DNA of 48,578 nucleotides from Bacillales bacterium UBA1709 (GTDB lineage Bacteria > Bacillota_I > Bacilli_A > RFN20 > UBA1709), in NCBI GenBank assembly GCA_002317215.1, contig DCJD01000027.1, forward strand, positions 1-48,578. The letters are read 5' to 3'. The notes beneath the pieces were generated by a model that had not been told where the DNA came from, did no database searches, and saw nothing but the letters and a program-made list of their open reading frames with translations. Of the stretch, positions 13,060-39,858 are shown piece after piece (position 1 is the first letter of the stretch; every line of letters starts with the position of its first letter). The position numbers were made by a program, and so were the translations under genes.

Positions 13060-13177
13060 ATTCAAATATTATATATGAATTAGAAATGAATACCTATCTA
13101 TTTATAAGTTATAAATATTTAGGCAAGTTATCTTATTTATATTTTATTATGTTAAAATATAAATGAGGTAAAAGATT

Positions 13178-13672
13178 ATGGAAAGATATAGCGTTGCAAT
13201 AATTACATTGTCTGATAAAGGATCTAAAGGAGAAAGAGTTGATTTATCAATGCCATCTATTAAAGAAGAATTAGATAATTATCCTTTTGATGTTGTTAAA
13301 TATGAATTAATACCAGATGATTTTGATTTAATTGTTAAGGTATTAAATGATTGTGTTAATGAGAATATTAATTTAGTTTTAACTACTGGAGGAACAGGAT
13401 TTAGTGTTAGAGATGTAACTCCAGAAGCTACTAAAAAAGTAATTGAAAAAGAAGCAAATGGTATTGTTGAAGCAATGAGATTTAATAGTATGAAGTTTAC
13501 CAATAGAGCGATGCTATCAAGAGCGGTATGTGGAATAAAGAATAATACTGTTATATTAAATCTTCCAGGATCTCCTAAAGCCTGTAAAGAAAACTTAGAA
13601 TATGTGATTGAACCATTAATACATGGAATAATGACATTAATTGGAAGCAGTAGTGAATGTGGTAGAAAATAA
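13178..13672 (+). CDS. mogA: Molybdopterin adenylyltransferase (MogA/MoaB family)
   Basis: TLSDKG, TTGGTGFSVRDVTPEA, SRAVCG and NLPGSPKA. Confidence 0.92.
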   Translation: MERYSVAIITLSDKGSKGERVDLSMPSIKEELDNYPFDVVKYELIPDDFDLIVKVLNDCVNENINLVLTTGGTGFSVRDVTPEATKKVIEKEANGIVEAMRFNSMKFTNRAMLSRAVCGIKNNTVILNLPGSPKACKENLEYVIEPLIHGIMTLIGSSSECGRK

Positions 13673-14874
13673 TGATTAACGTTGTTAGTTTAAAAGATGC
13701 TCAAAAGAAGATATTTGATAATTTAATAGCATTAGATTTTGAGATTATTAAGATAGAAGACTCTTTAAATAGAGTTCTTTTTGATGATATTAAAGCAAAT
13801 GAAAACTTACCACAATTTAAAAGATCAATAGTAGATGGGTATGCCATTAAATCAAGTAATAGTGTTGGAGTTAATCAAGGAGTACCTGGAATCTTTAAAT
13901 ATAAAGGTGAGATACTAATGGGTCAAGATAATAGTTTTGAATTAAATGATTATGAAACTATTTATGTTCCAACTGGTGGACTTGTTCCTGAGTGTTTCGA
14001 TGCAGTTGCAATGATTGAAAACTGTAAAAAAGTTAATGATGAAGTTTTACTATACTCCCCATTAAAAGCTAATGAGAATATTATTAATGTTGGTGAAGAT
14101 ATTACTAAAGATAATGTAATCATTACTAAAGGAACTATTTTAAATCCATATAATATTGGCTTATTAGCGGGTCTTGGAATTGATAAAGTTAAAGTATATA
14201 AGAAATTTAAATACAGTATTATCTCTACTGGTGATGAGATAATACCTATTACTAATAAACTAGAAGCATGTAAGATAAGAGATATTAATAGTTATGCTAT
14301 TGATGCTAAACTATCTAGTTTTGGAGTATTAGTTAATAAATATCTTATTAAAGATGATTTCGATTTATTAACTAATACTCTAAATAAAGCTTTAAGTGAA
14401 TCAGATTATGTCTTTTTAAGTGGCGGAAGTAGTGTTGGTAAGAAAGATTTTACAATAGATGTAATTAGTCAAATGTCGAAAACAGTCTTATTCCATGGGG
14501 TTTCTATTAAACCTGGTAAACCAACAATGGCTTCTATATTAGATAATAAGATGATTATTGGTTTACCAGGTCATCCAATGGCTTCTCTTATGAGTTTAGA
14601 TTTAATATTTGTGGAATCTTTAAAAAGAAAGATGGGAATAGAATTAGATAATATTGTATTTGCTAAGACTAGTGTTAATTTCCCTTCTAGTCCAGGTAAG
14701 ACTACTATTATGCCACTTAAATTAACAAGAGATAAAGAATGTTTATATGCTTATCCTTTATTCTATAAATCAGGATTAATTAATATATTAAATAAAGCTG
14801 ATGGATATATGGTTATTGATGAGAAGAGTGAAGGGATATACAAGGATAGTATTGTTGAGGTTAGAAAGATATGA
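13672..14874 (+). CDS. moeA: Molybdopterin/tungstopterin metal insertase MoeA
   Basis: RSIVDGYA, PTGGLVP, STGDE, SGGSSVG, IKPGKP and LPGHP. Confidence 0.92.
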   Translation: MINVVSLKDAQKKIFDNLIALDFEIIKIEDSLNRVLFDDIKANENLPQFKRSIVDGYAIKSSNSVGVNQGVPGIFKYKGEILMGQDNSFELNDYETIYVPTGGLVPECFDAVAMIENCKKVNDEVLLYSPLKANENIINVGEDITKDNVIITKGTILNPYNIGLLAGLGIDKVKVYKKFKYSIISTGDEIIPITNKLEACKIRDINSYAIDAKLSSFGVLVNKYLIKDDFDLLTNTLNKALSESDYVFLSGGSSVGKKDFTIDVISQMSKTVLFHGVSIKPGKPTMASILDNKMIIGLPGHPMASLMSLDLIFVESLKRKMGIELDNIVFAKTSVNFPSSPGKTTIMPLKLTRDKECLYAYPLFYKSGLINILNKADGYMVIDEKSEGIYKDSIVEVRKI

Positions 14875-16748
14875 GAAGAACTTATATAGAAAATAATGAT
14901 ATGAGTGTGTTTGATATTTATCTATCTTCTTTTAAGTCTTTAGAAGTTGAAAAAGAGATTATTAAGACTAGTGAATCATTAGATAATGTTACTAGTAAAG
15001 CTATATATGCTAAAAAATGTGATCCTTTATATAATGCTTCAGCTATGGATGGAATAGCAGTTGATTCAAATTTAACACCTACTGCTAATGAACAAAATCC
15101 TTTAGTATTAAAAGAAGGTATAGACTTTGTATATGTTAATACTGGTAATCCTATTGATAGTAGATTTAATTCAGTTATTATGATTGAGAACGTTTTAGTA
15201 AATAATGATAATACAGTATCAATCATAGAACCTTCTTATCCTTGGCAAAACATTAGAGTAAAAGGTGAAAGTATTGTAGAAGGACAAATGGTAGTGCCTT
15301 CTAATCATAAAATAAGACCACAAGATATAGGGGCTATTATAGCTAGTGCTAATATAGATATTGAAGTATATAAAAAAGTAAGAGTAGGTATTATACCAAC
15401 TGGTAATGAGATGGTTAATGATGTTAATGATCTTAAAGTTGGAAAACTAATGGAATCTAATTCTAAGATGTTTAGTAGTAGTGTAATAAGTTTAAATGGA
15501 ATATCTAAAATCTATGATATTTGTTTAGATGATAAAGAAATGCTTAAAGAAAGATTATTATTAGCAGCTAAAGAAAATGATTTAGTTATTATTAATGCTG
15601 GTAGTAGTGCTGGAACTAAAGATTTTACAGTAGAAGTATTAGAAGAGATTGGTGAAGTATATGCTCATGGTTTTGCTATTAAACCTGGTAAACCTACAAT
15701 ACTTGCTAAGATAAATAATAAACCAGTTATTGGGATACCTGGATATCCAGTATCAGCTTTTCTTGTATTTGATTTATTTGTTAAACCATTAATTCTTAAA
15801 ATGAGTGGCTTAAAAATAAATAGCAGAAATAAACTTAAATGTAGATTAACTAGAAATATAGTTAGTAGTTTAAAAAATGCCGAATATGTGAGAATGAATA
15901 TTGGATATGTTAATAATGAATTTGTTGCAACACCATTAGAAAAAGGGGCTGCTCAAATAATGTCTTTAGTAAAAGCGGATGGTTTATTATATATTGATAA
16001 GAATTCTGAAGGATATAATGAAGGAAGTATTGTTGATATTGAATTATTAAAAGATATTGATGAGATAAAGAATAATTTATTAGTTATTGGAAGCCACGAT
16101 TTAATAATTGATGTTTTAAGTGATAAATTAAATATTTCTAGTGCGCACGTTGGAAGTATGGGAGGAATAATTGCTTTAACTAAAAATGAAACTCATATTG
16201 CTCCAATTCATTTGTTAGCAGATGATGGAACTTATAATATTCCTTATATTAAGAAATATTTTAAAGATAGAAAGATGGTATTAATTAAAGGTGTAGGTAG
16301 AATCCAAGGAATTATGCAAAACAATGATACTAATATTACTAGTATTAAAGAGATAAGCGATAATCATATTAGTTTTGCTAATAGACAATATGGATCAGGC
16401 ACTAGAATGCTTTTTGATCATTTATTAAAAGAAAATAGTATAAGTAGTAGTAATATATATGGATATGAAAAAGAATATTCTACTCATTTGTCGGTAGGTG
16501 TCGCAATTGAGAATAATAGTGCTAAATGTGGAATAGGTATAAAAAGTGTTGCTAATATTCTTGGATTAAAGTTTGTTGAAATAGCCAAAGAAGAATATGA
16601 TTTCTTAACTACATATGAAAACTATCAAGATAAAAGAGTTCAAGAATTTATTGAATTACTAAAATCTAAAGAAATTAAAGATAAGTTTATAGAATTTAAA
16701 GATTATGATGTTAGTAAACTAGGAGAAGTTATAATAATAGAATGCTAG
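14871..16748 (+). CDS. moeA: MoeA paralog fused to a C-terminal periplasmic-binding-protein-like domain
   Basis: SAMDGIAV, PTGNE, AGSSAG, IKPGKP and PGYPVS; C-terminal GSHD...GSMGG...ANRQYGSGTR PBP domain. Confidence 0.9.
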   Translation: MRRTYIENNDMSVFDIYLSSFKSLEVEKEIIKTSESLDNVTSKAIYAKKCDPLYNASAMDGIAVDSNLTPTANEQNPLVLKEGIDFVYVNTGNPIDSRFNSVIMIENVLVNNDNTVSIIEPSYPWQNIRVKGESIVEGQMVVPSNHKIRPQDIGAIIASANIDIEVYKKVRVGIIPTGNEMVNDVNDLKVGKLMESNSKMFSSSVISLNGISKIYDICLDDKEMLKERLLLAAKENDLVIINAGSSAGTKDFTVEVLEEIGEVYAHGFAIKPGKPTILAKINNKPVIGIPGYPVSAFLVFDLFVKPLILKMSGLKINSRNKLKCRLTRNIVSSLKNAEYVRMNIGYVNNEFVATPLEKGAAQIMSLVKADGLLYIDKNSEGYNEGSIVDIELLKDIDEIKNNLLVIGSHDLIIDVLSDKLNISSAHVGSMGGIIALTKNETHIAPIHLLADDGTYNIPYIKKYFKDRKMVLIKGVGRIQGIMQNNDTNITSIKEISDNHISFANRQYGSGTRMLFDHLLKENSISSSNIYGYEKEYSTHLSVGVAIENNSAKCGIGIKSVANILGLKFVEIAKEEYDFLTTYENYQDKRVQEFIELLKSKEIKDKFIEFKDYDVSKLGEVIIIEC

Positions 16749-17668
16749 ATAAATTTAACCGTAATATTTCCTATTTAAGATTATCAGTTACTGATTTATG
16801 CAATCTTAATTGTAAATATTGTTCATCATCTAACGAAGTCAAAGTTAGTCACTTTGACCTTTTAAGCAATGAAGAGATGGTTAAAGTTATTAAGGTTTTC
16901 CATAATCTTGGAATTAAGAAAGTTAGAATTACCGGTGGAGAACCATTGCTTAAAAAAGGTCTATGTGACCTAATTAGACAATTATCTACTTTTATTGATG
17001 ATATTGGGATAACTACTAATGGACAGCTACTTCCTGATATGATTAACGATTTAAAGGATGCTGGTTTAAAAAGCATTAATGTTAGTTTAGATACGTTAGA
17101 TCCTATTAAGTATCAATATCTAACTTTAGGTAAGATTGATAATGTATTAAAAGGATTAGAGATGGCATATAATCTTCATCTATCGATCAAGATTAATGCA
17201 GTATTATTAAAAGGAGTCAATGATGAGGAGATATTTGAATTAGCTAAGTATGCTAAAAGTATTAATGCTAAGTTTAGATTTATTGAATTAATGCCTTTTA
17301 CAACAACATTAGATTATTTTAATAAATATTATATAAGTAGTGATGAGATTATTAAGAAATATAACCTTATATATATTACATCTAATGGAACTTCAGAGTA
17401 TTATAAGAATGCACAAGGATTAGAGATTGGATTTATTCGACCAATTAGTCATAAATTCTGTAAAGAATGTAATAGAATTAGAATGACAAGTTTTGGAAAA
17501 ATAATCCCATGTCTTCATTCTAAAGATACTTATGATATAAAAGAATATATAGATGATGAGAAAAGATTAGAAGAAAGATTAATAGAAATTATTAATTTAA
17601 AACCTAAAGAGCATCATATTAATGAAGGGAATATTCAAAGTTTGGATATGCGAAAGATAGGAGGATAG
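16742..17668 (+). CDS. moaA: GTP 3',8-cyclase (radical SAM)
   Basis: CNLNCKYC, TGGEPLL, C-terminal CxxC-x13-C and terminal IGG. Confidence 0.95.
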   Translation: MLDKFNRNISYLRLSVTDLCNLNCKYCSSSNEVKVSHFDLLSNEEMVKVIKVFHNLGIKKVRITGGEPLLKKGLCDLIRQLSTFIDDIGITTNGQLLPDMINDLKDAGLKSINVSLDTLDPIKYQYLTLGKIDNVLKGLEMAYNLHLSIKINAVLLKGVNDEEIFELAKYAKSINAKFRFIELMPFTTTLDYFNKYYISSDEIIKKYNLIYITSNGTSEYYKNAQGLEIGFIRPISHKFCKECNRIRMTSFGKIIPCLHSKDTYDIKEYIDDEKRLEERLIEIINLKPKEHHINEGNIQSLDMRKIGG

Positions 17669-19956: not shown

Positions 19957-20922
19957 TTATTTTCCAAAGTTTTTGTAGTAAGTTAAGAATGTTGCTTTAT
20001 CTGATAAGATATAAGCATTTGTATTTTCAGCATCTAATAGTGCAGCACCCATTCCTTTTCCAGTACTATTGTACCATGAAGCATAAGCTTGGAAGCTAGA
20101 TGCTTCTGCTGTAATACCTAATGCTGTTGGCCATAATGAAATTTCTTTTGTATGAGTTCCTGAATTATCCCCTCTTGAAACGAAAGCATATTGTTCAGTT
20201 GAGATTTTTTCAAAAGCTTGTTTAACAGTCATTTCAGTAGTGATGTTTAAAGGATTAGATTTAGGTCCAACTAATACGAAATAGTTGTACATGAAATTTA
20301 ATCTTGCAGCACTTTGACCAGTGATAATTCTAGCATATCCATCATTTACAAATGCTTCTTCTTGAGTTTTTGAGTGAACAAGAATTAAGTCTGCTGCGCC
20401 ATCTTTAGCAGCTTGAATAGCTTTTCCTGTACCTGCTGAATAGATTTCGATATCATAACCATATTTTGTTTCAAAAATAGGTAAAACATATCCAAGTAAT
20501 CCTGAATCGTTAACTGATGTAGTTGTAGATAATCTAATATCTTTAGTTTCACTAGTAGCACTTGGAATAGTTGCAGTGCTAGTTGGATGGCCATCTTTTA
20601 AGTAGAATAAGTATTCACCATATTCCGCATAACCATAACCTGCGCAAGCATTTAAACCTTCTTCAGATAAGAACCAGTTAATTAATGCATCAGCACCAAC
20701 AGTATTGATTGAAACTTCTGGTTTAGATGCAAAAGCGGCTGCATTTGGATCTACAGCTAGTAATGAATAATTATTAATCATATCACTATCTGATTCTAAA
20801 ATAATTTTTAAATTACTTACTGGTGTTTCTTCTTTATCTTTGTTTTTACCACAGCTACTTAAAGCAGCTACTGCTCCAAAAACAACAAAAAGAGCACTTA
20901 AAAATTTGAACTTTCTTTGCAT
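19957..20922 (-). CDS. tupA: Tungstate-binding lipoprotein, circularly permuted
   Basis: Lipobox LSSC24; TTTSVNDSG, GTGKA, VHSK and SRGDNSGTHTKE TupA signatures; the segment that is normally C-terminal sits at aa 38-108. Confidence 0.88.
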   Translation of the reverse strand: MQRKFKFLSALFVVFGAVAALSSCGKNKDKEETPVSNLKIILESDSDMINNYSLLAVDPNAAAFASKPEVSINTVGADALINWFLSEEGLNACAGYGYAEYGEYLFYLKDGHPTSTATIPSATSETKDIRLSTTTSVNDSGLLGYVLPIFETKYGYDIEIYSAGTGKAIQAAKDGAADLILVHSKTQEEAFVNDGYARIITGQSAARLNFMYNYFVLVGPKSNPLNITTEMTVKQAFEKISTEQYAFVSRGDNSGTHTKEISLWPTALGITAEASSFQAYASWYNSTGKGMGAALLDAENTNAYILSDKATFLTYYKNFGK

Positions 20923-20925
20923 ATA

Positions 20926-21030
20926 TTTCTCCTTTTCGCAATGGAAGGCTTATTCATTTCTAAATAAACCCCGGCTTACATCCATGGACTATGTAATTCT
21001 TTAGGATATTTAAGCTCGGATATAAGAGAT
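20926..21030 (-). ncRNA. Moco/tungsten-cofactor riboswitch (Rfam MOCO_RNA_motif-like) in the tupA leader
   Basis: Minus strand UCCGAGC...CCUAAAG...GCCGGG...UUAUUUA-GAAA-UGAAUAA-GCCUUCCAU...GAAAAGGAGA. It has a GNRA-capped stem, and the 3' strand contains the SD 5 nt before the ATG. Confidence 0.85.
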
Positions 21031-21180
21031 GTTCTTTCTCTTACATATTAACTATACCAAAAAAATACGGTTTGTTTAACAAATTAAACAAAATATATAA
21101 GCCATATATTTTGTATTGGTTTATTGTTTTAATCTTTATAATTTGATAAATTATAATTACTTATAAGGAGATTTTTTGAC

Positions 21181-21563: not shown

Positions 21564-23462
21564 ATGGCAACAAAATATAAATCATATTGGGGTAAAGTTG
21601 TTAAAGTTAATTTAACAACAAAAGAAGTTACAGACTACGAAATTAGTGACAAAGATAGATTATTATATCTTGGTGGAAAGTGTATTGCTGCTAAGATTAT
21701 TTACGATAATATTAAATCTAAAATTGATCCATTAAGTGAAGAGAACATGATTGTTATTTCAACATCACCATTAAATGCTGTTGGAGCACCTTGTTCTTCT
21801 AGATTTAATACATCAACTATTTCACCATTAACTGGTTATTATACTTCCAGTAACTGTGGTGGTAACTTTGGTTTATCTTTAAAAAGAGCTGGTATTGATG
21901 CTTTAATTATTACTGGAAAAGCAAAAGATAAGACATATTTAGTTATTACTAATAATGGTATTGAATTTAAAGATGCTACTCCATATTGGGGTATGAAGAC
22001 TCAAGAAGTTCAAGAAGCTATACCAGATAAAGGTGCTAAATTTGTTATTGGACCTGCTGGTGAAAACTTAGTTAGATATGCTTGTGTTATCTCTGGTGAA
22101 AGAGCTAGTGGTAGAGGTGGAGTTGGTGCAGTATTTGGTTCTAAAAACTTAAAAGGTTTAGTTGCTTTTGGTATGAAATCTCCAGAAGTATATAATCCTA
22201 AAAAATTCCATAAGAATAATATATTATGGACTAAGAGATTAAGAACTCACCCAACTACTGGTAAGATTTTACCAGAACTTGGTACCGCATCATTAGTAAC
22301 GCCAATGCATGCTAAGAACTTACTTGCAACAAATAACTATAGAACTGGAAAGTTTGAACACTTTGATGATGTAAGTGGAGAAACTTTAAGAGATGAATAT
22401 CTAGTTAGAAACGATGGTTGTACAACTTGTCCTATTAGATGTGCTAGAGTTGTTACTGTAGATGGAAAGAGTGTTAAAGGACCAGAAGTTGAAACTATCG
22501 GTTTATTTGGACCTAATATTAGAAACAATAATATGCAAGCTATCCTAGACTGGAACTATTATATGGATGATCTCGGACTTGATACTATTAGCTGTGGTAA
22601 TACTATTTCATGGGCTATGGAAGCAAATGAAAAAGGATTCTGGAAGAATGGATTAGAATTTGGAAAGATTGATAATATTACTCAAACTCTTGATGATATT
22701 GCTCATAGAAAAGGTATCGGTAATGAACTTGCTGAAGGATCTAAGAGATTAAGTGAAAAATATGGTGGCAAAGAATTTGCTATGAACGTTAAAGGTATGG
22801 AACTTGCCGCTTATGAACCTCGTGGTGCTGTTGGACAAGGCTTAGGTTATGCTGTTGCTAACCGTGGTGGATGCCATCTTAATGGTGGATATTTAGTTGT
22901 TCTTGAAGGCTTAGGATTATCTGTAAATCCTTACACTCCAAAAGGAAAAGCCGCATTCTGTGTTATGTTCCAAGACTTAATGGAAGCATGTAGTGCTGGT
23001 GGTAACTGTTTATTTACAACTTATGCTTTCTTCCCATCTATTTTAATTGCTAAACCTAATAGTTGGATTACTAGAACTGTTAATAAAGTATTTACTAGTT
23101 TTGGTGGTATTGTTACTGTTTTATTAAAGAATCCACGTATTGCTGCAATTCATTTACCACATATGCTACCTCACACTAAGGCATTAAAATATGCTACTGG
23201 TATGTATATGGATTTAGGTAAATTCTTACAAATAGGTGAAAGAGGATACAACTTAGAAAGATTAATTGATGTAAATCTTGGTGTAAGTAAGAAAGATGAT
23301 GAATTGCCATTAAGATTAACAACTGAATTACAAATTGCAACTAATAAAGATTCTAAAGTTCCTTTAGATGTATTAAGAGCTAAATATTATAAAGTTAGAG
23401 GTTGGGATGAAAATGGTATTCCAACAGATAAATTATTAAAGAAATTAAAGATTGAAAAATAA
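21564..23462 (+). CDS. aor: Tungsten-dependent aldehyde:ferredoxin oxidoreductase (AOR/WOR family)
   Basis: GRGGVGAVFGSKNLK, CTTCPIRC plus GNCLF (4Fe-4S ligands), GPEVET, DDLGLD (DxxGxD), RGGCH and RGWDENGIP. Confidence 0.93.
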   Translation: MATKYKSYWGKVVKVNLTTKEVTDYEISDKDRLLYLGGKCIAAKIIYDNIKSKIDPLSEENMIVISTSPLNAVGAPCSSRFNTSTISPLTGYYTSSNCGGNFGLSLKRAGIDALIITGKAKDKTYLVITNNGIEFKDATPYWGMKTQEVQEAIPDKGAKFVIGPAGENLVRYACVISGERASGRGGVGAVFGSKNLKGLVAFGMKSPEVYNPKKFHKNNILWTKRLRTHPTTGKILPELGTASLVTPMHAKNLLATNNYRTGKFEHFDDVSGETLRDEYLVRNDGCTTCPIRCARVVTVDGKSVKGPEVETIGLFGPNIRNNNMQAILDWNYYMDDLGLDTISCGNTISWAMEANEKGFWKNGLEFGKIDNITQTLDDIAHRKGIGNELAEGSKRLSEKYGGKEFAMNVKGMELAAYEPRGAVGQGLGYAVANRGGCHLNGGYLVVLEGLGLSVNPYTPKGKAAFCVMFQDLMEACSAGGNCLFTTYAFFPSILIAKPNSWITRTVNKVFTSFGGIVTVLLKNPRIAAIHLPHMLPHTKALKYATGMYMDLGKFLQIGERGYNLERLIDVNLGVSKKDDELPLRLTTELQIATNKDSKVPLDVLRAKYYKVRGWDENGIPTDKLLKKLKIEK

Positions 23463-29728: not shown

Positions 29729-30478
29729 ATGAAGTATTATTTTTTGCAATCTGGTAGTGCTGGAAATAGTTGCCTTATAGTAACGAAAGATTCAAAAATC
29801 CTTATTGATGTTGGTTTAACATATTCTTGCTTAAAAGATAAATTGAAAATATTAGGTTATTCAATAACGGATATTGATGCTTTTTTGATTACTCATGAAC
29901 ATGGAGATCATATTAAAGGGATTCAATATATTCCTTATTCAAAAGTTTATGCTACAAAAGAAACACTTTCTGGTAATGAGTTTCATGATATAGAACCATA
30001 TAAGATGTTTGAAATAAATAATACTCATATTGTTCCTTTAACCATTAGTCACGATATTAGAAATGGGGTAGGTTATGTTATTGATGATGAAAATCAAAGA
30101 TTAGTTTATATGACTGATACAGGCAAAGTATTAGTTAAGAATAGAGCATTTATGAAAGATGCTGATCATTATTGCATCGAATCAAATCACAATTTAGAGA
30201 TGTTAATGAATTGTCCTTATCCTGATTTTCTTAAAATTAGAATATCAAGTGATAAAGGACATTTATCTAATGAACAATCTGGTAAACTAATGGGTAAATT
30301 AATTGGTAAAAACACCAAAACAATAACATTAGCCCATATATCTGAGAAAACTAATACACCTGATTTAGCCTTAAAAGATTTTAAAGAACAATTGGATTTA
30401 GCAAATATAGATTATTCAAATATACGAATTAAAGCCGCTGATAGATATGAAATAACAATAGGAGAAGATAATGATTAA
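29729..30478 (+). CDS. yycJ: YycJ/WalJ metallo-beta-lactamase-fold hydrolase
   Basis: SGSAGNS, THEHGDH, ESNH, GHLSN and LAHIS. Confidence 0.88.
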   Translation: MKYYFLQSGSAGNSCLIVTKDSKILIDVGLTYSCLKDKLKILGYSITDIDAFLITHEHGDHIKGIQYIPYSKVYATKETLSGNEFHDIEPYKMFEINNTHIVPLTISHDIRNGVGYVIDDENQRLVYMTDTGKVLVKNRAFMKDADHYCIESNHNLEMLMNCPYPDFLKIRISSDKGHLSNEQSGKLMGKLIGKNTKTITLAHISEKTNTPDLALKDFKEQLDLANIDYSNIRIKAADRYEITIGEDND

Positions 30479-31652
30479 AGGATTTAAAGTCTTATCATTA
30501 GTTTTTATGGTTTTCTCATTAACCTCAATATCTCAAAAGAAAGATGTTGCAATTAATTGCAACACTATTTCTGATGAAGAAATAACTCTAACTAATCAAG
30601 TAAACTTAACTAGTTCAATGAATGATTTTTATAATGAAGCTATTAAAGGTGTTGTTAAAGTATCAAATTATGCAAAGACTACTACTCAAGGTGTTTCTAG
30701 TTATGTAAAACAATCAATTGGGTCTGGTTTTTTCTATGATGAAGATAGCTCATATTATTATCTATTAACAAATCATCATGTTATTGAATCATATAATATG
30801 GTTTCAATAACTATCCATTCAAATCAAGAGATAAAAAACGTTAAAGTTATTGGATATGATGATAAACAAGATGTTGGAGTTTTAAGAGTAAATAAGTCAG
30901 AGTTAAACTCAGCAATTAAAGTATTAGAATTATTAAAAGATAATAATTTTATTAATCCAACAATCGGAGATGATGTCGTAGCACTTGGTTGTCCTGGAGG
31001 CCAAGGATTTAGTGGTACTTTAAGTAAAGGTATTGTAAGTGGAGTTAATCGTATTGTTAGTGAATCAAATAATAATATTTATAATCAAGATCATGCGATT
31101 CAAACGGATTGCGCAATTAATCCTGGGAATAGTGGTGGACCACTTTTAAATATGAATATGGAAGTTATTGGTGTTAATACAATGAAGATTTCTTCAGATA
31201 GCAGTATTAGAGAAGAAGCTCTTAATTTTGCTTTGCCTATTCATGATATGTATAAAACATCAATGCTTATTAGAAAACAATTTAATGATTTTGGTCAAAA
31301 CAGTGTTATTCAATTTAATAATAGATTATCTATTTCTTCTTCTAAGCAATTTAAATCTATTCGAGATATGAGTATTAAAGAAAGAGATGTCTATGGAGTT
31401 ATAAATAAAAACCAAGGTGTAGTATGTTTAAATGATGATTCTACACTTAATGTTAAAAGAGGAAGTTTAATTGTTAGTATTAATGGTGTTGCTATTAATA
31501 ACGTATGTGAACTAAGAAGAGAACTACTAGATATTTATTATCAAGGAAACTTAACTAATAAGATTGTTGTACAAGTTTATAAAAACGTTAATGGAAATCT
31601 TAATGATTCTATATCTAATATTTCTATTAGTCCTAAGATTATTAATGTGTAG
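30471..31652 (+). CDS. htrA: HtrA-like S1C serine protease with an intact triad and a PDZ-like C terminus
   Basis: TNHHV (His), QDVGV (Asp) and NPGNSGGP (Ser); N-terminal signal/anchor. Confidence 0.88.
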   Translation: MIKGFKVLSLVFMVFSLTSISQKKDVAINCNTISDEEITLTNQVNLTSSMNDFYNEAIKGVVKVSNYAKTTTQGVSSYVKQSIGSGFFYDEDSSYYYLLTNHHVIESYNMVSITIHSNQEIKNVKVIGYDDKQDVGVLRVNKSELNSAIKVLELLKDNNFINPTIGDDVVALGCPGGQGFSGTLSKGIVSGVNRIVSESNNNIYNQDHAIQTDCAINPGNSGGPLLNMNMEVIGVNTMKISSDSSIREEALNFALPIHDMYKTSMLIRKQFNDFGQNSVIQFNNRLSISSSKQFKSIRDMSIKERDVYGVINKNQGVVCLNDDSTLNVKRGSLIVSINGVAINNVCELRRELLDIYYQGNLTNKIVVQVYKNVNGNLNDSISNISISPKIINV

Positions 31653-31664
31653 GAAGGAGAATGT

Positions 31665-32918
31665 ATGAGAAAGATTTTAAAAGCAGTTTTTGTATCAATA
31701 TTCTGTTTGATATTTATGAGTGGTTGTACTTCTTTACTTCCTGTTTTTACCACGGTCAATGAAACTAACAATAACAAGAGTGTTTGTCAATATGTTACAA
31801 AACAAACCACTTCAAATACTAATGAATCTAATACCACATTACTTTCCTCTTCAATTTCTAGTTTTCTAGATGCTAAAAATTCTAGTGTTCGTGTAATGGC
31901 TTGTTATAGTGTTAATGATAACGAATACGAAATGAGTAGTAGTGGATTTATTGTAGATGGTGAATATAATTCATCAACCCATAAATATGTCTACTATATT
32001 GTAACTAGTGCAAGTGGCATATTTTATAGATATGTAACTAATCCAAGCGATTCAATTGATATTGAAAATGATGTTAATATTGTTAGAAGTGGAACTTTTG
32101 AAATGTATATGGAAGATGGTAATGCATATACTGGAGAGATGGTTGGTTATTTTGATGCTTATGATGTTGCTATTTTCAAATTTCAGTCTGATAAAGAATA
32201 TGATGTATTAGAGTTGTCTAATGATGAAGTAAGTATTGGAGATACAGTTTATGCTTATGGAACTCCAGTAGATGGATACAATTTATTAAATACTTTAATA
32301 AAAGGAACAGTATCTGGTACCAATCGTTTATCAGATTTATATTTTAGTGAAACTATTAATAGCAAAACATATAGCGCTGTTATTTCTTCTTATCCAACCT
32401 TCCAATTTGATGGATCTATTAATCTTGGAATGGAAGGCGGGCCAATTATTAATGCAAACGGACAAGTAGTTGGAATGATTGGATATAGATATGGTACAAA
32501 TGCTGGTACTTATATGTATGAATCGTTGTCTTTCGGATTATCAAGTGCCAATCTAAAACCTATCATTGAATCAATTATCTCAACTGGTAGTTTTACGAAA
32601 CCATTACTTGGTATTACTATTACTGATATTTATAATGTTTCAGAGAAAGAAAACTATGAATGGATTGAAGATAATCAAATTTATAGTGGAGTTGTTATTT
32701 TAAAAGATGGAATTAGCGATAACTCCCCAGCTTATAACGCTTCAATTAGTGATAATAGTGTTTTAATTAAGTTAGTTAGTGATGGTAAAGAATATAATAT
32801 TTCTAATTTATCTTGTTTATATAGTGCTTTAGTTCAAATTAATCCTTCTAATCCTTTATCAGTAACTTATATTGATAGCAATAATCAAACACATACAAAG
32901 GTGGTTAATTTACAATGA
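31665..32918 (+). CDS. HtrA-like lipoprotein pseudoprotease (His and Ser missing)
   Basis: Lipobox-like MSGC; SSGFIV, YDVAI, YAYGTP, KGTVSG and FQFDGSINLG fit the trypsin-like fold; VTSASGI replaces TNxHV and GMEGGP replaces GNSGGP. Confidence 0.8.
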   Translation: MRKILKAVFVSIFCLIFMSGCTSLLPVFTTVNETNNNKSVCQYVTKQTTSNTNESNTTLLSSSISSFLDAKNSSVRVMACYSVNDNEYEMSSSGFIVDGEYNSSTHKYVYYIVTSASGIFYRYVTNPSDSIDIENDVNIVRSGTFEMYMEDGNAYTGEMVGYFDAYDVAIFKFQSDKEYDVLELSNDEVSIGDTVYAYGTPVDGYNLLNTLIKGTVSGTNRLSDLYFSETINSKTYSAVISSYPTFQFDGSINLGMEGGPIINANGQVVGMIGYRYGTNAGTYMYESLSFGLSSANLKPIIESIISTGSFTKPLLGITITDIYNVSEKENYEWIEDNQIYSGVVILKDGISDNSPAYNASISDNSVLIKLVSDGKEYNISNLSCLYSALVQINPSNPLSVTYIDSNNQTHTKVVNLQ

Positions 32919-33382
32919 AACTTATCTGTGTTGGAAAATTAAAAGAAGCATTTAATAGAGACGCTTTTAATGAATATGCTAAAAGACTATCTAAATATAC
33001 TAAATTAGAAGTTATCGAACTTAATGACGAAAGCATTAATGACGATTCAGTAGCATCTATTAATAAAGCAGTTGCAATAGAAAGTGAAAGAATTTTATCT
33101 AAAATAAATGATAAAGATTATGTTATTTTACTTGCGATAAAAGGAAATATGCTTGATAGTGAAGGATTATCTAATAAAATTAATGAGGTAATGAATCAAA
33201 GCAAACCTATTGCTTTTGTAATAGGTGGTTCTTATGGTGTTGATGATAGTGTTATAAAAAGAGCTAATTATCAATTATCCTTTTCAAAATTAACATTTCC
33301 TCATCAATTATTTAGAGTTATGCTATTGGAACAAATTTATCGTAGTTTCAAGATTATTAAGAAGGAGAAATATCATAAATGA
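32915..33382 (+). CDS. rlmH: 23S rRNA pseudouridine-1915 N3-methyltransferase
   Basis: MKLICVGKLKE, FVIGGSYG, SKLTFPHQLFRVMLLEQIYRSF and YHK. Confidence 0.96.
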   Translation: MKLICVGKLKEAFNRDAFNEYAKRLSKYTKLEVIELNDESINDDSVASINKAVAIESERILSKINDKDYVILLAIKGNMLDSEGLSNKINEVMNQSKPIAFVIGGSYGVDDSVIKRANYQLSFSKLTFPHQLFRVMLLEQIYRSFKIIKKEKYHK

Positions 33383-34605
33383 TTAAAGTTTATCATAAGG
33401 ATGTTTGCTGTGGTGGATGTTGTTTTGAAAAACACCATGAAGAAGAACGATCCAGATTATTTAAAATTATTCAAATCATAGTTGGAGCAATTCTAATTGT
33501 TTTTTCTTTGATTTCTGAAGAGAAAGATTTTCTTCCTTTTTCTAGCCTATATTTATTTATAATTGCATATATTCTTGTTGGTTATGAAGTTATTATTAAT
33601 TCATTTAAAAATATTCTAAAGAGAAAGTTTTTTGATGAATCAACATTAATGGTAATAGCTACAATATGTGCTTTTTTTGCAAAAGAATATGAAGAAGCCG
33701 TTATTGTAATGGAACTATTCCAAATAGGAGAATTATTAGAAGATATTGCTGTTGATAAAACACATGAATCAGTAGAACATTTACTAATTATGGATGATGT
33801 AATTGTTCATAAACTAGATCGTTCAAATATTATAGATTTAGACATAACACATGTTAGTGTTGGAGATGTTATTTTAGTTAAGAAAGGTGAAAGAATTCCT
33901 TTAGATGGAACTATTGTTAAAGGTAAATCAAGATTAGATTTAATTAATTTGGTTGGTCATAACGAAGTAATTAATGGAAATATTGATACTGATGTATTAT
34001 CTGGGTCTATCAATTTAGAAAATGATTTATATATTAAAGTTAATAAAAATTATGATCATTCTACGGTTCATAGAATATTAGATTTAATTGAAGAAAAAAC
34101 TATATCTAAGACTAAATCAAAGAAATTTGTATCTAAATTTGCATCTATATATACACCAGTAGTTGTTTGTTGTGCAATTTTAGTAGTATTAATTCCTACG
34201 TTATTATTTAAACAAAATATAGATATTTGGTTATATAAAGCGTGCTTATTTTTAGTTGTATCATGTCCATGCGCAATTGTCATTTCAGTACCTCTTGCAT
34301 ATTTTATTGGAATTGCGATAACTTGTAAAAACGGGGTATTAATGAGCGGGACTAATTATCTTGAATTATTAGAAAATAATAACGTTAATAAAATCGATTC
34401 TTCAAGTTTGGTTAAGAAAAGAATCATCTATATTGTTTATGAAAACATCATTGCAGTTGTACTTATTAAAACAATCGCGATGATATGGGGCTTATTTGGT
34501 GATTTACCAATTTGGGTTGCTATATTAAGTGATACAGGAATATGTTTACTTTGTATTATTAATTGTTTAAGACTATTTTTATTAAAAATTAAGAAGGGAG
34601 AATAG
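33379..34605 (+). CDS. CadA/ZntA-type (P1B-2) heavy-metal ATPase derivative lacking the P and N domains
   Basis: FFDESTLMVIAT, GERIPLDG, FASIYTP, SCPC, ENI..K and SDTG are present; DKTGT, TGE, HP, TGD and GDGxND are absent; 408 aa. Confidence 0.85.
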   Translation: MIKVYHKDVCCGGCCFEKHHEEERSRLFKIIQIIVGAILIVFSLISEEKDFLPFSSLYLFIIAYILVGYEVIINSFKNILKRKFFDESTLMVIATICAFFAKEYEEAVIVMELFQIGELLEDIAVDKTHESVEHLLIMDDVIVHKLDRSNIIDLDITHVSVGDVILVKKGERIPLDGTIVKGKSRLDLINLVGHNEVINGNIDTDVLSGSINLENDLYIKVNKNYDHSTVHRILDLIEEKTISKTKSKKFVSKFASIYTPVVVCCAILVVLIPTLLFKQNIDIWLYKACLFLVVSCPCAIVISVPLAYFIGIAITCKNGVLMSGTNYLELLENNNVNKIDSSSLVKKRIIYIVYENIIAVVLIKTIAMIWGLFGDLPIWVAILSDTGICLLCIINCLRLFLLKIKKGE

Positions 34606-34606
34606 T

Positions 34607-36058
34607 ATGATTATTGATTTTAAAGAAAAGAAAAACTTATTTAAGGTAATTGAACTAGGTTTAGGCATTGTATTTCTATTATGTTTCTTATTACCATTTA
34701 TTAATGTTGCGATAGATTCAGAAAGTTCCTTAAAAATCAGTGGTTTTCAGTTGATTAAAGGAATGAACAATGATTTATATTTACTTGATGTAAATGAATT
34801 TAGTTCTAACGTATATTTGTATTTTCCTCTATTTTTAACGTTGGTAGTTGCCGTCTTAGCGATATTTGATTTTAAGAATTTCGAGATTATTAAAAAAATC
34901 GTATGTGTTTTAGTAAGTTGTTTTAATGCTGTTGTAATTTCAAATATTAAAAATAGATTTTATATTGTTAATAAGGTTTCATATACTGATCAATCAAGTA
35001 TATCTTATGGATATGGATACTCAATATGTTTATGTATTGTGTTAGGAATATTTTTAATGAGTGTTTATGACTTATTAGTTAATGGTAAAAAGCTTTCAGA
35101 AGAGAAACGAATTATTGGATGTTTAGAAAACAATAAGTTATTAAAAATATCATTTGAGAGTTTATGTTATCTCATAATTACATTTGGATTATTCTTCGCT
35201 ATTGTTAGAATCGGCAATAATTTAGGATACATTGATATGAGTTTAATTAGATTATTATCAAAATATGATGTACCTAAAAATGCTTTAGGCTTTATTAAAA
35301 CAAAAGTATACAAACCAACAATTATATTCTTTGTTTCAGTAATCGTTTCAATTGCATTACGTGCTCTTACTTATTTATATAATAAAAAGATATTTAAAAT
35401 CTCTAATGTTATTATCTTAGCCATAGCATTTTCATTTATTGTTTCTCTTGAGGACAATGTATCAATAATTTGCATTCAAACAGGTGAAAATATATATTCA
35501 GCAGGCTTCAATGGCTCACTAACGATTTATGGATCATTAGTATTTACTAGCTGTTTATTATTACTTCTTTTTAATATTCTTGAATATTATAAAGAGTATG
35601 GCTTAAGAGATGCATCAATTCTTGGATTAACTTGTATTGGAGCTTTAGTTCTAACAAATATGTATCAATTAAGCGTTTATACATATAATGTTTATACTTC
35701 AGACGATAAATATAATGAAGTGGCCTATTCTTTATGGAAAATATTAAAATCTAAAGATATTTTAGGAAGTGGAGTTAAACTACAATACTTCTATATCTTA
35801 ATATTCTTAGAATTAGCTGGGTTAGTTTGTTCATTTGTCCCTTTTAAAGAGATTAAGATTAAATATTTAGTTTTATTCTTGATCTATGTTGTTTCTTTTG
35901 TTCTATTTGTAATGACATACTTAAAAGGATATAACTGTTTAACTGGTGATAATGCTCAATATTGTAGAATAGAATGTTATGAATATGGATATATTCATGG
36001 GTTATTTCTACTAATTTGTGCTTCTTCATACCTATATCTTGGATACGTTGAAGATTAA
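34607..36058 (+). CDS. Hypothetical polytopic membrane protein with three roughly 4-TM repeats
   Basis: About 12 hydrophobic segments in three similarly spaced modules; starts 1 nt after the previous stop. Confidence 0.65.
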   Translation: MIIDFKEKKNLFKVIELGLGIVFLLCFLLPFINVAIDSESSLKISGFQLIKGMNNDLYLLDVNEFSSNVYLYFPLFLTLVVAVLAIFDFKNFEIIKKIVCVLVSCFNAVVISNIKNRFYIVNKVSYTDQSSISYGYGYSICLCIVLGIFLMSVYDLLVNGKKLSEEKRIIGCLENNKLLKISFESLCYLIITFGLFFAIVRIGNNLGYIDMSLIRLLSKYDVPKNALGFIKTKVYKPTIIFFVSVIVSIALRALTYLYNKKIFKISNVIILAIAFSFIVSLEDNVSIICIQTGENIYSAGFNGSLTIYGSLVFTSCLLLLLFNILEYYKEYGLRDASILGLTCIGALVLTNMYQLSVYTYNVYTSDDKYNEVAYSLWKILKSKDILGSGVKLQYFYILIFLELAGLVCSFVPFKEIKIKYLVLFLIYVVSFVLFVMTYLKGYNCLTGDNAQYCRIECYEYGYIHGLFLLICASSYLYLGYVED

Positions 36059-36122: not shown

Positions 36123-38945
36123 ATGGATGTAAATAAAATTGTTATAAAAGGTGCAAGAGAAAATAACCTAAAAGATATTAATCTTGAATTACCTAAAAAT
36201 AAATTAATAGTTATGACAGGTCTTTCTGGATCAGGAAAAACAACTTTAGCATTTGATACTATTTATGCTGAAGGTCAAAGAAGATACGTTGAATCTTTAT
36301 CTAGTTATGCTAGACAATTTTTAGGTGGAATGAGTAAACCTGATGTTGATAGTATAACTGGTCTTTCTCCAGCGATTGCAATAAACCAAAAATCAGTAAA
36401 CAATAATCCAAGATCTACTGTTGGTACTGTTACTGAAATATATGATTATTTAAGACTATTGTATGCAAGAATTGGTATTCCATATTGCCCAACTCATAAT
36501 AAACCAATTAATGGTTTTACTACTAAAGAAATTATAGATAAGGTCCTTTCATATCCATTAGATACTAAACTAATCATATTAGCTCCATTAGTAAAAGGTA
36601 AAAAAGGAACTTTCAAAGATATATTTGATAAGCTTTCAAAATCTGGTTTTGTTAGAGTTAGATTAGATGGTCAAATTTGTAATATTGATGAATTAAATTT
36701 AGAAGATAAAAATAAAAAACATGATATTGATGTTGTTATTGATAGATTAAAAATAAGTAGTGATTGTAAAGCAAGATTAACAGATTCAATTACTCAAGGT
36801 TTAGAAGTTGGAGAAGGATTAATTACTTGTTTATTAGATGATGTTGAATTATCTTTCTCTACCAATTATTCTTGTCCTGAATGTGGATTTACTGTTGGTA
36901 AATTAGAACCTCGTTTGTTCTCTTTTAATGCCCCAAGTGGAGCGTGTCCAGAATGTATGGGAATTGGTGTTAAAAAAGAAGTAATGGATGATTTATTAAT
37001 CCCAGATAAATCTTTATCAATAAATGAAGGTGGAATAGTATTTCTTAAAAATATGGTAGGTTCTTGTTTGATTGAATGGCAAGAACAAGTTGCTTTATGC
37101 AAACACTACAATATTGATATGGATAAACCAATCCAAGATTTAAGCAAAGAAGAACAATATATTATCTTAAATGGAGCTGATGAAGCTTTTGAATTTGATA
37201 TTAAAACAGGTTCAGGCAATATTTTGCATAGAACAAAACAGATTGAAGGTATTAAGCAAAGACTAAAACGTTTATATTTAGAAACCAATAGTGAAATGAC
37301 TAGACAATGGTATGGCAATTATATTCGAGATTGTGAATGTGATGCATGTCATGGTAAACGTTTAAATAAGGAAGCTTTAAGCGTTAGAGTTGGTAAATAT
37401 AATATTATTGAACTTTGTACATTACCAATAAATGAAATATACGATTATTTAAATAATATTAAGTTAACAACGCAACAAGAAGATATTGCTAGATTAATTT
37501 TAAAAGAGATTAAGAGTCGACTTGGATTTTTAATTAATGTTGGATTAGATTATTTAACTCTTGCAAGAAACGCCTCAACATTAAGTGGTGGCGAATCACA
37601 AAGAATTAGATTAGCAACTCAAATAGGATCAAATTTAACAGGTGTTTTATATGTATTAGATGAACCAAGTATTGGTTTACATCAAAGAGATAACTCTAAA
37701 TTAATTAATGCTTTAAAGCAAATGAGAGATATCGGTAATACATTACTTGTTGTTGAACATGATGAAGAAACAATGATGAGTGCCGATTATCTTGTTGATA
37801 TTGGACCAGGAAGTGGAGTTCATGGTGGAGAAGTTGTTGCAAGTGGTACTGTAGAAGAAGTCATGAACAACCCTAAGTCTTTAACTGGTAAATATTTATC
37901 GGGTAAATTAAAGATTGATACACCATCTGCTAGAAGAAAAGGAAATGGTTTTAACATTGAGATTAAAGGAGCAAAAGGAAATAACCTCAAGAATGTTGAT
38001 GTTAAAATTCCTCTTGGAACATTAACCGTAATAACTGGAGTTAGTGGATCTGGCAAATCTAGTTTAATTAATGAAACAATGTGCCAAGGAATATTAAGTA
38101 AATGGGGCAATAAAGATGCTTCTCCTTTACCTTTTAATGAAATTAATGGTTTGGAAAATATTGATAAAATGATTGATATCAACCAAGAACCTATTGGAAG
38201 AACGTCAAGATCTAACCCAGCGACTTATACTGGAGTATTTGATTTAATTAGAGAATTATTCTCATTAACTAAAGATGCTCGTATTAAAGGATTTGGTAAA
38301 AACGTTTTCTCGTTCAATAATAAAGGTGGAAGATGTGAGAAATGTCAAGGGGATGGAGTGATTAGAGTTCCAATGCATTTCCTACCAGATGTTTATGTTG
38401 TATGTGAAGATTGTGGTGGCAAACGTTATTCAGAAGAAGTTCTATCTGTTAGATATAAAGATAAGAATATATTTGAAGTATTAGAAATGACAATTGATGA
38501 AGCTTTAGTATTCTTTGAAAATATGCCAAAGATAAAAAATATCTTGCAGACACTAGTTGATGTTGGTCTTGGATATATTAAACTTGGCCAAATGGCTACT
38601 ACATTATCGGGTGGAGAAGCGCAAAGATTAAAACTTGCTAGTGAACTTCAAAGAAGATCAACTGGAAAAACAATGTATATATTAGATGAACCAACTACTG
38701 GTTTGCATAATCATGATGTTAAAAAACTTCTTGATGTATTACATAGACTTGTTGATTTAGGTAATAGTGTAATAGTTATTGAACATAACTTAGAAGTTAT
38801 TAAAAATGCAGATTATATTATAGATTTAGGACCTGAAGGTGGAAATAAAGGTGGTTATATTATCGCTAAAGGTACACCAGAAGAAATATGCAAAGTTAAA
38901 GAATCATATACTGGTCAATATTTAAAGAAAATTTTAAACTCATAA
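36123..38945 (+). CDS. uvrA: Excinuclease ABC subunit A
   Basis: Two ABC modules (GLSGSGKT and GVSGSGKS, both with LSGGE), zinc fingers, FSFNAPSGAC. Confidence 0.98.
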   Translation: MDVNKIVIKGARENNLKDINLELPKNKLIVMTGLSGSGKTTLAFDTIYAEGQRRYVESLSSYARQFLGGMSKPDVDSITGLSPAIAINQKSVNNNPRSTVGTVTEIYDYLRLLYARIGIPYCPTHNKPINGFTTKEIIDKVLSYPLDTKLIILAPLVKGKKGTFKDIFDKLSKSGFVRVRLDGQICNIDELNLEDKNKKHDIDVVIDRLKISSDCKARLTDSITQGLEVGEGLITCLLDDVELSFSTNYSCPECGFTVGKLEPRLFSFNAPSGACPECMGIGVKKEVMDDLLIPDKSLSINEGGIVFLKNMVGSCLIEWQEQVALCKHYNIDMDKPIQDLSKEEQYIILNGADEAFEFDIKTGSGNILHRTKQIEGIKQRLKRLYLETNSEMTRQWYGNYIRDCECDACHGKRLNKEALSVRVGKYNIIELCTLPINEIYDYLNNIKLTTQQEDIARLILKEIKSRLGFLINVGLDYLTLARNASTLSGGESQRIRLATQIGSNLTGVLYVLDEPSIGLHQRDNSKLINALKQMRDIGNTLLVVEHDEETMMSADYLVDIGPGSGVHGGEVVASGTVEEVMNNPKSLTGKYLSGKLKIDTPSARRKGNGFNIEIKGAKGNNLKNVDVKIPLGTLTVITGVSGSGKSSLINETMCQGILSKWGNKDASPLPFNEINGLENIDKMIDINQEPIGRTSRSNPATYTGVFDLIRELFSLTKDARIKGFGKNVFSFNNKGGRCEKCQGDGVIRVPMHFLPDVYVVCEDCGGKRYSEEVLSVRYKDKNIFEVLEMTIDEALVFFENMPKIKNILQTLVDVGLGYIKLGQMATTLSGGEAQRLKLASELQRRSTGKTMYILDEPTTGLHNHDVKKLLDVLHRLVDLGNSVIVIEHNLEVIKNADYIIDLGPEGGNKGGYIIAKGTPEEICKVKESYTGQYLKKILNS

Positions 38946-38955
38946 GGAGGCAAAA

Positions 38956-39858
38956 ATGTTTTATATTTTATCAAAACTTAACCCAATTGCTTTAAAACTT
39001 GGCGATTTGGAAATTAGATGGTATGCAATATGTATATTAACTGGAGCATTATGCACTTATCTTTTAGCTAGATATTATTTTAAAAAGGGTGGATATGATC
39101 CAAATATTGCTGATGATATTATTGTAATTGCTTTGCCTGCTGGAATTATTGGGGCTAGAATTTGGTGGTGCATATGTGATTCAGGAAGTCCTTGGAGAAA
39201 CGGAGATTTCTGGGGCTTTATTACTGAATTTGCAAATGGTGGTCTTGCTATTCAAGGTGGGGTTATTTTAGGAGCAGCAGCTGGTATTGGAGTTGTTTTA
39301 ACTAAATATAAAAATGTTAATATTTTCTATGCCATGGATGCGGTTATTCCAAATATTCTTATTGCACAAGCAATTGGTAGATGGGGTAATTTTTTCAATC
39401 AAGAAGTATACGGTGCCTGTGTTGATTATGAAGCATTAAATTTCTTGCCTAATTTTGTTCAAGAACAAATGCGTGGAGATATATTAAATGGAGTTAATAT
39501 TGGGGAGTGGAATATTTATTCAGCTTCAATTGAATGTTTAACTACTCAAGCTGCTCAACCATTATTCTTATATGAATCATTATTAAATATCTTAGGATTA
39601 GTTATTGTATCTATTGTTATTAGAAAATTCTGGACTAAGGGCAGAAAAAATGGTGATTTATCAGCTTTATATTTAGTATGGTATGGTGTTGTTAGATTTT
39701 TATTAGAACCTTTAAGAAATCAAGAATTCATTATGAATGCTTGGGGACATATGCCAGTTAGTCAAATCACATCCATCTTATTTATTATTGGTGGAATATT
39801 ATTTATGGTTGCCTTAAGAGCAATCCCTATTATAAAAAATAAAACTAAACATGATTAA
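38956..39858 (+). CDS. lgt: Prolipoprotein diacylglyceryl transferase
   Basis: EIRWYA, GAR, GGLAIQGG, QAIGRWGNFFNQE, PLFLYES and RFLLEPLR. Confidence 0.95.
   Translation: MFYILSKLNPIALKLGDLEIRWYAICILTGALCTYLLARYYFKKGGYDPNIADDIIVIALPAGIIGARIWWCICDSGSPWRNGDFWGFITEFANGGLAIQGGVILGAAAGIGVVLTKYKNVNIFYAMDAVIPNILIAQAIGRWGNFFNQEVYGACVDYEALNFLPNFVQEQMRGDILNGVNIGEWNIYSASIECLTTQAAQPLFLYESLLNILGLVIVSIVIRKFWTKGRKNGDLSALYLVWYGVVRFLLEPLRNQEFIMNAWGHMPVSQITSILFIIGGILFMVALRAIPIIKNKTKHD

Follow-up and report, generated by a model that had tools for sequence, protein, structure and literature searches.

The P1B-2 (Zn/Cd/Pb) ATPases, represented by ZntA of Shigella and Escherichia coli (PDB 4UMV/4UMW) and by CadA (PDB 7QBZ), carry out ATP-driven export through a membrane domain made of the helices MA-MB and M1-M6. 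In ZntA, the residues of the CPC motif, K693 and D714 belong to the metal site, in which K693 serves as a built-in counter-ion and D714 as a metal ligand, and roles have also been described for E202, M187, F210 and E214 (PMC6305203, PMC8880997). The signatures N(x)7K of M5 and DxG(x)7N of M6 are used here as defined in PMC6305203. The present work concerns an open reading frame (ORF) of 408 amino acids (aa) at 33379-34605 (+) of a 48,578-nucleotide (nt) stretch of DNA from Bacillales bacterium UBA1709 (contig DCJD01000027.1; the whole stretch is hereafter called the window), for which ZntA and CadA are the best matches in both sequence and structure. The ORF shares with them the MA-MB and M1-M6 membrane domain, the fold of the actuator (A) domain, the CPC, N(x)7K and DxG(x)7N signatures and the exit-path glutamate (E106, equivalent to ZntA E202). 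Unlike them, it has no phosphorylation (P) domain, no nucleotide-binding (N) domain and no DKTGT, TGD or GDGxND motif, its TGES motif is destroyed, its cytoplasmic entry carries the replacements G82R and E248K, and it would be incapable of ATP-driven export.

Our preferred reading, to which we assign a probability of roughly 0.55, is that the inactivation is old when measured against a neutral clock, that relaxed purifying selection has continued to act on the membrane domain and on the fold of the A domain, and that the cell probably still produces the protein and uses it, without ATP, by way of its intact metal site. Anatomically the protein is striking; the signal of selection, which comes from a single metagenomic lineage, is suggestive.

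Non-pumping use of a P-type fold has a precedent in the P4-ATPase-like module of alveolate guanylate cyclases (P4GC), a scaffold that is kept and needed even though the phosphorylated Asp and the A-domain Glu have been lost in some lineages (PMC13466520). Like the ORF, these modules are catalytically degenerate; unlike the ORF, which has half of the pump deleted and occurs in a single lineage, they still possess each of the four domains, form a fusion with a cyclase and are conserved in many species. In the palytoxin-bound Na,K-ATPase, the membrane domain of a pump conducts ions passively once its gates no longer follow the catalytic cycle (PMC12478176). This gives a physical basis to the idea that the ORF product could be a passive facilitator, but that conversion is toxin-induced.

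Domain content and catalytic motifs

The reading frame is open over all 408 codons, with neither a stop nor a frameshift. Pfam places E1-E2_ATPase (PF00122), the module comprising the A domain and its flanking transmembrane (TM) helices, at residues 143-314 with 122 bits (E = 2.3e-35, cut-off 28.1), which establishes homology to the P-type ATPase superfamily, and finds no Hydrolase/HAD domain (PF00702) in the ORF. The nearest NCBIfam models are the heavy-metal TIGR01525 (cut-off 346) and the cadmium-family TIGR01512 P1B models. The ORF yields about 216 bits, far short of both cut-offs (on TIGR01512, 215.8 bits against 313.5), and 176.5 bits on NF033775 (ZntA), against a cut-off of 1240; it stays under the thresholds of the curated families because half of the protein is missing. 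In a phmmer search against the PDB, residues 21-333 align with residues 119-429 of Shigella ZntA (4umv) and residues 352-400 with 681-729, leaving approximately 250 ZntA residues (430-680, the P and N domains) without a counterpart.

The in-frame loss thus amounts to about 217-240 aa of the P and N domains, and DKTGT, TGD and GDGxND are all absent from the translation. Where a functional P-type ATPase has DKTGT in a HAD-type P domain, the ORF has a lone D340 within 'DSSSL', and where it has TGES in the A domain, the ORF has VGHN. The replacements T192V, E194H and P197V fall at columns that are 94-100% conserved. A compensated frameshift was considered as the origin of VGHN and rejected, as the other two frames of the block hold stops and contain no TGES-like reading. 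A 6-nt insertion (GGT-[CATAAC]-GAA) is a possible origin, and the motif is destroyed either way. This motif content shows that the 408-aa protein would be unable to hydrolyse ATP or to cycle and pump as a P-type ATPase, having lost the N domain together with DKTGT, TGD and GDGxND and having no functional TGES left. Every catalytic feature of the family is lacking and, judging from its sequence, the ORF should not be annotated as a heavy-metal-translocating ATPase.

The three P1B-2 signatures, CPC in M4, N(x)7K in M5 and DxG(x)7N in M6, are all present (Table 1), and residues E106, M91, F114 and E118 are kept as the equivalents of ZntA E202, M187, F210 and E214.

A preliminary description of this locus, prepared from the sequence alone, had presented the ORF as unbroken and as following CadA/ZntA with the catalytic head missing, which is borne out by Pfam and by the PDB alignment. 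Its list of lost motifs, including the change of TGES to LVGHN, agrees with the alignment to ZntA and to relatives, and its argument that no P-type pump cycles without the aspartate holds for a protein from which the catalytic motifs are absent. The N-terminal HKDVCCGGCC..HH tail, the ATGA coupling to rlmH and the distance of 1 nt to the next gene are as it had reported them. Its statement that the transport ligands are retained is correct for CPC, K364 and D385, but it does not extend to all transport-related residues, as G82R and E248K demonstrate.

A structural model, which the preliminary description had proposed, was built with AlphaFold2 using 62 homologs and has a predicted local distance difference test (pLDDT) score of 81 and a predicted TM-score (pTM) of 0.72. 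The eight TM helices and the A domain are predicted with confidence, while the linker (331-340) and the termini have a pLDDT below 50. Foldseek matched the model to ZntA (4umw/4umv), CadA and CopA, with the top TM-score (0.65) to the E1-state CopA 7r0g. A short loop linking the M4 and M5 extensions is sterically plausible.

Table 1. Features of the ORF and of its immediate surroundings, with coordinates in the window.
Feature	Coordinates	Strand	Evidence
P1B-2-type (Cd/Zn) pump homolog: MA, MB, M1-M2, A domain, M3-M4, short linker, M5-M6; P and N domains absent	33379..34605	+	Pfam, NCBIfam, PDB alignment, AlphaFold2, Foldseek
Cys/His-rich N-terminal tail (H6 KDV C10C11 GG C14C15 FEK H19H20), counterpart of the His/Cys-rich tails of relatives; not HMA (PF00403)	33394..33438	+	Pfam, alignment
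Body of the A (actuator) domain, residues ~141-240, fold predicted with high confidence	33799..34098	+	AlphaFold2, rate analysis
Destroyed dephosphorylation motif, TGES to VGHN (V192-G-H-N195; LTGES of relatives to LVGHN)	33952..33963	+	Alignment with relatives
SCPC metal-binding motif of M4, intact (C296, P297, C298; ZntA C392/C394)	34261..34272	+	PDB alignment, relatives
Junction zone, residues ~329-350, P and N domains missing	34363..34428	+	PDB alignment, relatives, AlphaFold2
M5 signature N356(x)7K364, intact (K364 = ZntA K693)	34444..34470	+	PDB alignment
M6 signature D385-x-G(x)7-N395 (D385-T-G387), intact (D385 = ZntA D714)	34531..34563	+	PDB alignment
AAGGAG Shine-Dalgarno sequence (33362-33367) within the end of rlmH, and ATGA start/stop overlap (33379-33382)	33362..33382	+	Sequence; same ATGA in sister L086
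rlmH (SPOUT methyltransferase), upstream gene overlapping the ORF start; control in relative-rate tests	32915..33382	+	Pfam
483-aa multi-pass membrane protein, starting 1 nt past the ORF stop; ancestral neighbour of the full-length pump in the clade	34607..36058	+	Domain search, locus comparison

Deletion junction

In comparison with the closest full-length relatives, the gap starts just past GTNYLELLE and stops just ahead of ..KKRIIYIVYENI. The preliminary description had set the jump at about 34369-34395; the deletion itself is confirmed, but its exact site is not, given that the breakpoint can be placed only to residues ~333-348. The segment 'NKID340SSSLVKK' of the ORF and 'VLFDKTGTLTKG' of the relatives are equally spaced from LELLE. 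Within it, 'DSSSLVK' (34396-34416, residues 340-346) lies as far from LELLE as 'DKTGTLT' does in relatives, and both alignments score about equally. D340 may be what is left of the phosphorylated Asp of DKTGT within a destroyed motif, and the deletion may start just past this degraded phosphorylation motif rather than ahead of it.

Full-length orthologs in related genomes

The nearest proteins are 46-57% identical to the ORF over the retained parts, and each of them is a full-length protein of 625-648 aa that has PF00702 and every catalytic motif. Five of them (P0002/L086, P0003/L087, P0004/L088, P0005/L005 and P0006/L003) occupy the same locus, after rlmH and before the 480-aa membrane protein and/or uvrA. 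In L003, which comes from the same metagenome, the gene order DUF2232-GdpP-L9-DnaB-MBL-HtrA-HtrA-RlmH-pump-UvrA-HprK-Lgt-HAD matches that of the window. In L086, hereafter the sister, rlmH overlaps by ATGA with the pump (625 aa), which is followed by a 499-aa membrane protein, and in L088 the pump is followed by a membrane protein of 478 aa. These orthologs resemble the ORF in their Cys/His-rich N-terminal tail and, in the sister, in the ATGA overlap. They differ from it in their length and in having all catalytic motifs; L005 (3988-4335) and L087 (240-608) also have an ArsR/SmtB (CadC-like, HTH_5) regulator gene immediately 5' of the pump.

Because the same locus carries full-length pumps in relatives, the ORF is, by its position, orthologous to a normal Cd/Zn-type pump. 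The locus comparison shows, at the level of sequence, a lineage-specific in-frame deletion of the catalytic head from a chromosomal rlmH-linked Cd/Zn-type (P1B-2-like) pump, the TGES loop having been randomised later. The window, L086 and L003 lack the ArsR/CadC-type regulator and have the pump joined to the rlmH operon; part of the clade seems to have given up metal-responsive control of the pump.

UvrA of the window is 66-73% identical to UvrA of uncultured 'Bacilli bacterium' metagenome-assembled genomes and other relatives, and 62% identical to that of Erysipelotrichaceae, which puts the organism among these uncultured Bacilli; no genus-level relative was found by this comparison. Among GTDB genomes, none of 80 loci has rlmH, htrA, uvrA or the 480-aa protein beside the pump.

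Further proteins of this architecture were sought in a word-indexed search of 5.8 billion proteins and an exhaustive HMMER search of 1.84 billion representatives, with the best 120-150 matches listed. Among these best matches, the sole short form in the first search is the protein of the window itself, and the second search contains no other protein of this architecture. Two apparent truncated homologs were rejected: P0201 (434 aa) is a contig-end fragment with DKTGT still present, and P0237 is a chimeric or frameshifted protein. The GTDB hits L011, L032, L034, L059, L067 and L068, in which a tblastn segment seemed to cross the junction, are all full length, as is every pump in the GTDB loci inspected. 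The scan of metagenome contigs returned nothing closer than the known relatives. The preliminary description had pointed to homologs sharing the junction as the place to look for support, and had itself named uniformly full-length close relatives as evidence against its interpretation; among the best matches listed there is no such homolog, and the relatives are all full length. In the literature searched, no natural P-type ATPase is described that is without its P and N domains, and we know of no natural P-type example without this head.

Rates of evolution

Given that the nearest protein is 51-57% identical and that synonymous sites are saturated, relative-rate, site-class and simulation proxies were used in place of the ratio of nonsynonymous to synonymous substitution rates. 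Changes unique to the window are unevenly distributed over the remnant (Table 2), and comparing the catalysis-only segments with the rest yields p = 0.004 (Fisher). At the nucleotide level, 25 of the 39 nt in the TGES block (residues 187-199) differ from the sister, which is near the random expectation (saturated), and the CPC, M5 and M6 blocks differ at 27-36% of nt. By class of site conservation, the substitution rates are 0.15, 0.29, 0.40 and 0.46 for the remnant, and 0.03, 0.13, 0.15 and 0.42 for the sister, so that in the remnant, too, the rate still follows how well a site is conserved across the family, which favours continuing constraint.

Table 2. Changes unique to one lineage, by segment of the remnant.
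Segment	Window-unique changes/informative sites	Window rate per informative site	Sister-unique changes/informative sites
Catalysis-only (TGES loop 189-197 and P-domain stub 319-335)	14/25	0.56	1/12
TM helices	30/127	0.24	13/110
A-domain body	11/50	0.22	10/49 (0.20)
Other loops and linkers	15/38	0.39	2/25

Of 29 changes at non-polar TM residues, a single one (L112E) brings in a polar or charged residue, against 21% expected under random AT-biased mutation (p = 0.01, or p = 0.07 if one third of the changes predate the loss). In simulations, 7.5% of random mutations in the ORF yield a stop. The excess aa divergence of 0.07-0.15 corresponds to approximately 37-80 neutral mutations, for which the probability of no stop ranges from about 0.06 down to 0.003, a figure that covers stops and does not count frameshifts at the four in-frame homopolymer runs of at least 6. 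The rate heterogeneity, the conservative TM replacements and the survival of the ORF argue for relaxed but continuing purifying selection.

Proposed role and competing explanations

The in-frame deletion took out the whole phosphorylation and nucleotide-binding head of the rlmH-linked pump, and the actuator TGES loop was randomised later. Left over are eight TM helices, the CPC / N(x)7K / DxG(x)7N site, the exit-path Glu E106, the Cys/His-rich tail and a folded A domain. According to the preferred reading, the protein would still be made and inserted into the membrane, and would act without ATP via its metal-binding membrane domain. It might take the form of a metal binding, buffering or sensing protein, or of one that slowly facilitates the passage of divalent metals down their electrochemical gradient, and might act jointly with the conserved neighbouring 483-aa membrane protein. 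A more specific proposal is that of a natural 'headless' P1B pump, kept either as an ATP-independent, Zn/Cd/Co-selective facilitator, whether uniporter or gated channel, or as a sensor of metals in the membrane, perhaps working with the 480-aa neighbour; this appears unlikely to us.

Several observations weigh against continued use of the protein and fit an in-frame pseudogene in early decay, in which the deletion or the loss of TGES killed the pump and the rest drifts without yet having acquired a stop or frameshift, maybe translated and useless. The truncated pump is a singleton of one lineage, with no conserved new family among the best matches listed. In Tajima tests of the ORF against the sister, run with four outgroups, 60-88 changes are unique to the window and 24-33 to the sister (chi2 7.8-32), and the remnant evolves 1.7-3.1 fold faster than the sister. 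This acceleration is gene-specific, because neither RlmH (14-17 vs 11-17) nor the 480-aa neighbour (53-62 vs 42-54) presents any asymmetry. At columns conserved in at least 90% of the family, the remnant has 13 unique losses, some of them radical (G82R, E194H, E248K, K323S), against 3-7 in intact relatives. Two of these turn family-invariant residues basic, namely G82 at the MB kink, now Arg, and E248 at the cytoplasmic start of M3 near the entry funnel, now Lys; at the cytoplasmic metal entry, they look like erosion of the transport function. Replacements in the A domain, with a mean BLOSUM62 score of -0.22 against -0.39 for random ones, are nearly as radical as random, and the excess over the sister is, in a per-column count, roughly even across conservation classes. 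A mixture of normal constraint and a short neutral phase accounts for the site-class data nearly as successfully, and when the most distant outgroup is used, the excess is so small that the probability of no stop is still about 0.06. Moreover, hprK is also missing at the locus in the same lineage, where gene loss is, by this sign, ongoing. Yet early decay does not account for everything. The reading frame is undisrupted, and uniform drift is not expected to concentrate changes in the catalysis-only segments, sparing the TM helices and the A domain, or to leave TM replacements that shun polar residues. With the TGES loop serving as neutral clock, more than 200 mutations would have fallen on the ORF, which could not have stayed open; four slippery homopolymers have produced no frameshift; and a 1.2-kb relic would have been kept in a very compact operon with its coupling signals intact. 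The model of constraint followed by a neutral phase is disfavoured because of ORF survival and rate heterogeneity, although these arguments involve small segments, a partition that is partly post hoc and one sister sequence. On balance, we consider decay a serious alternative, though less probable than the preferred reading. The preliminary description had favoured selection over free decay: the near-saturation of the catalysis-only segments, the lesser change of the TM helices and A domain, the conservative TM changes and the open ORF speak for it, while the singleton status and the now basic entry residues speak against it.

The remaining two explanations are far less probable. An assembly or sequencing artefact would be a collapsed or chimeric contig that dropped approximately 650-720 bp of a normal pump gene. 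The source is a metagenome, and two assemblies of the locus, JGI contig L001 and the Logan assembly L002 (SRR1221442), may come from the same reads. Nevertheless, JGI and the independent Logan assembly are both base-identical to the window across the gene and the junction, the P and N domains contain no collapse-prone repeat, and the join is in frame. Lesions away from the junction (TGES to VGHN, K323S and E248K) leave the gene catalytically dead regardless, and simple collapse is unlikely because these lesions independently mark a dead pump; we regard an artefact as highly improbable. We give least weight of all to a split pump, in which another gene of the genome would encode the P/N head as a polypeptide of its own, to reassemble with the ORF product into an active ATPase. 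The visible genome amounts to 48.6 kb only, which leaves room for such a gene, but within this window there is no P/N-domain homolog (the best tblastn E-values, 1-6, are to an unrelated HAD phosphatase) and no other P-type ATPase. An active form would also need TGES and the conserved residues of the P-domain stub, both of which are destroyed.

If the protein is kept by selection, as in the preferred reading, the locus is a natural experiment on a P1B membrane domain with a high-affinity site and an actuator domain but no ATP hydrolysis. It would bear on how tightly gating is coupled to catalysis and on how pumps evolve into passive carriers, sensors or scaffolds, and would offer a ready-made minimal construct for structural and metal-binding work. 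Should the facilitator or sensor proposal be true, it would constitute a natural pump-to-channel or pump-to-receptor conversion inside the P-type ATPase superfamily; CFTR, among the ABC transporters, is a pump-to-channel conversion in a different superfamily. If the gene is only decaying, this is ordinary gene loss in a streamlined gut bacterium, together with a caution that automated annotation will say 'heavy metal translocating P-type ATPase', which the ORF cannot be.

Expression signals and neighbouring genes

The AAGGAG sequence sits 11 nt 5' of the ORF start. The codon-position G+C of the ORF (0.384/0.264/0.132) matches that of rlmH; this match, the Shine-Dalgarno sequence, the close coupling to the genes on both sides and the model, confident outside the linker, count in favour of the preferred reading. 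In a promoter/terminator scan, promoter-like sites were fewer than in shuffled sequences.

The 483-aa neighbour has approximately 10-11 hydrophobic segments and matches no Pfam or NCBIfam model; its identity to the counterpart in L005 is 22% (E = 3e-8). Membrane proteins of this family, of ~480-500 aa, occur in the window (34607-36058), L086 (2632-4131), L088 (2350-3786) and L005 (8492-9928). They are fast-evolving, with 18-24% identity between lineages, and are encoded directly 3' of a Cd/Zn-type pump in three lineages and two genes off in the fourth. The family may be a pump accessory. The preliminary description had envisaged the ORF product as a possible partner of this neighbour. The neighbour is not a partner acquired with the truncation, given that it already adjoins full-length pumps in sister lineages.

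In L003, hprK (12882-13799) lies between uvrA and lgt; in the window (38945-38956), uvrA is followed directly by lgt, with no hprK there, which suggests hprK was lost or relocated in this lineage. Ahead of rlmH are two tandem genes for HtrA-like Trypsin_2 serine proteases (30471-32918), an arrangement kept in L003, L004 and L005.

Farther upstream, a molybdenum cofactor (Moco)/tungsten riboswitch (RF01055, 52.8 bits) at 20914-21033 (-) precedes a gene for an ABC-type periplasmic-binding protein (PBP) at 19957-20922 (-). Near it, at 13672-17668 (+) and 21564-23462 (+), are two MoeA genes, one of them fused to a PBP-like domain (625 aa), together with MoaA and aldehyde:ferredoxin oxidoreductase. 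The riboswitch and these genes look like a tungsten/molybdenum cofactor island.

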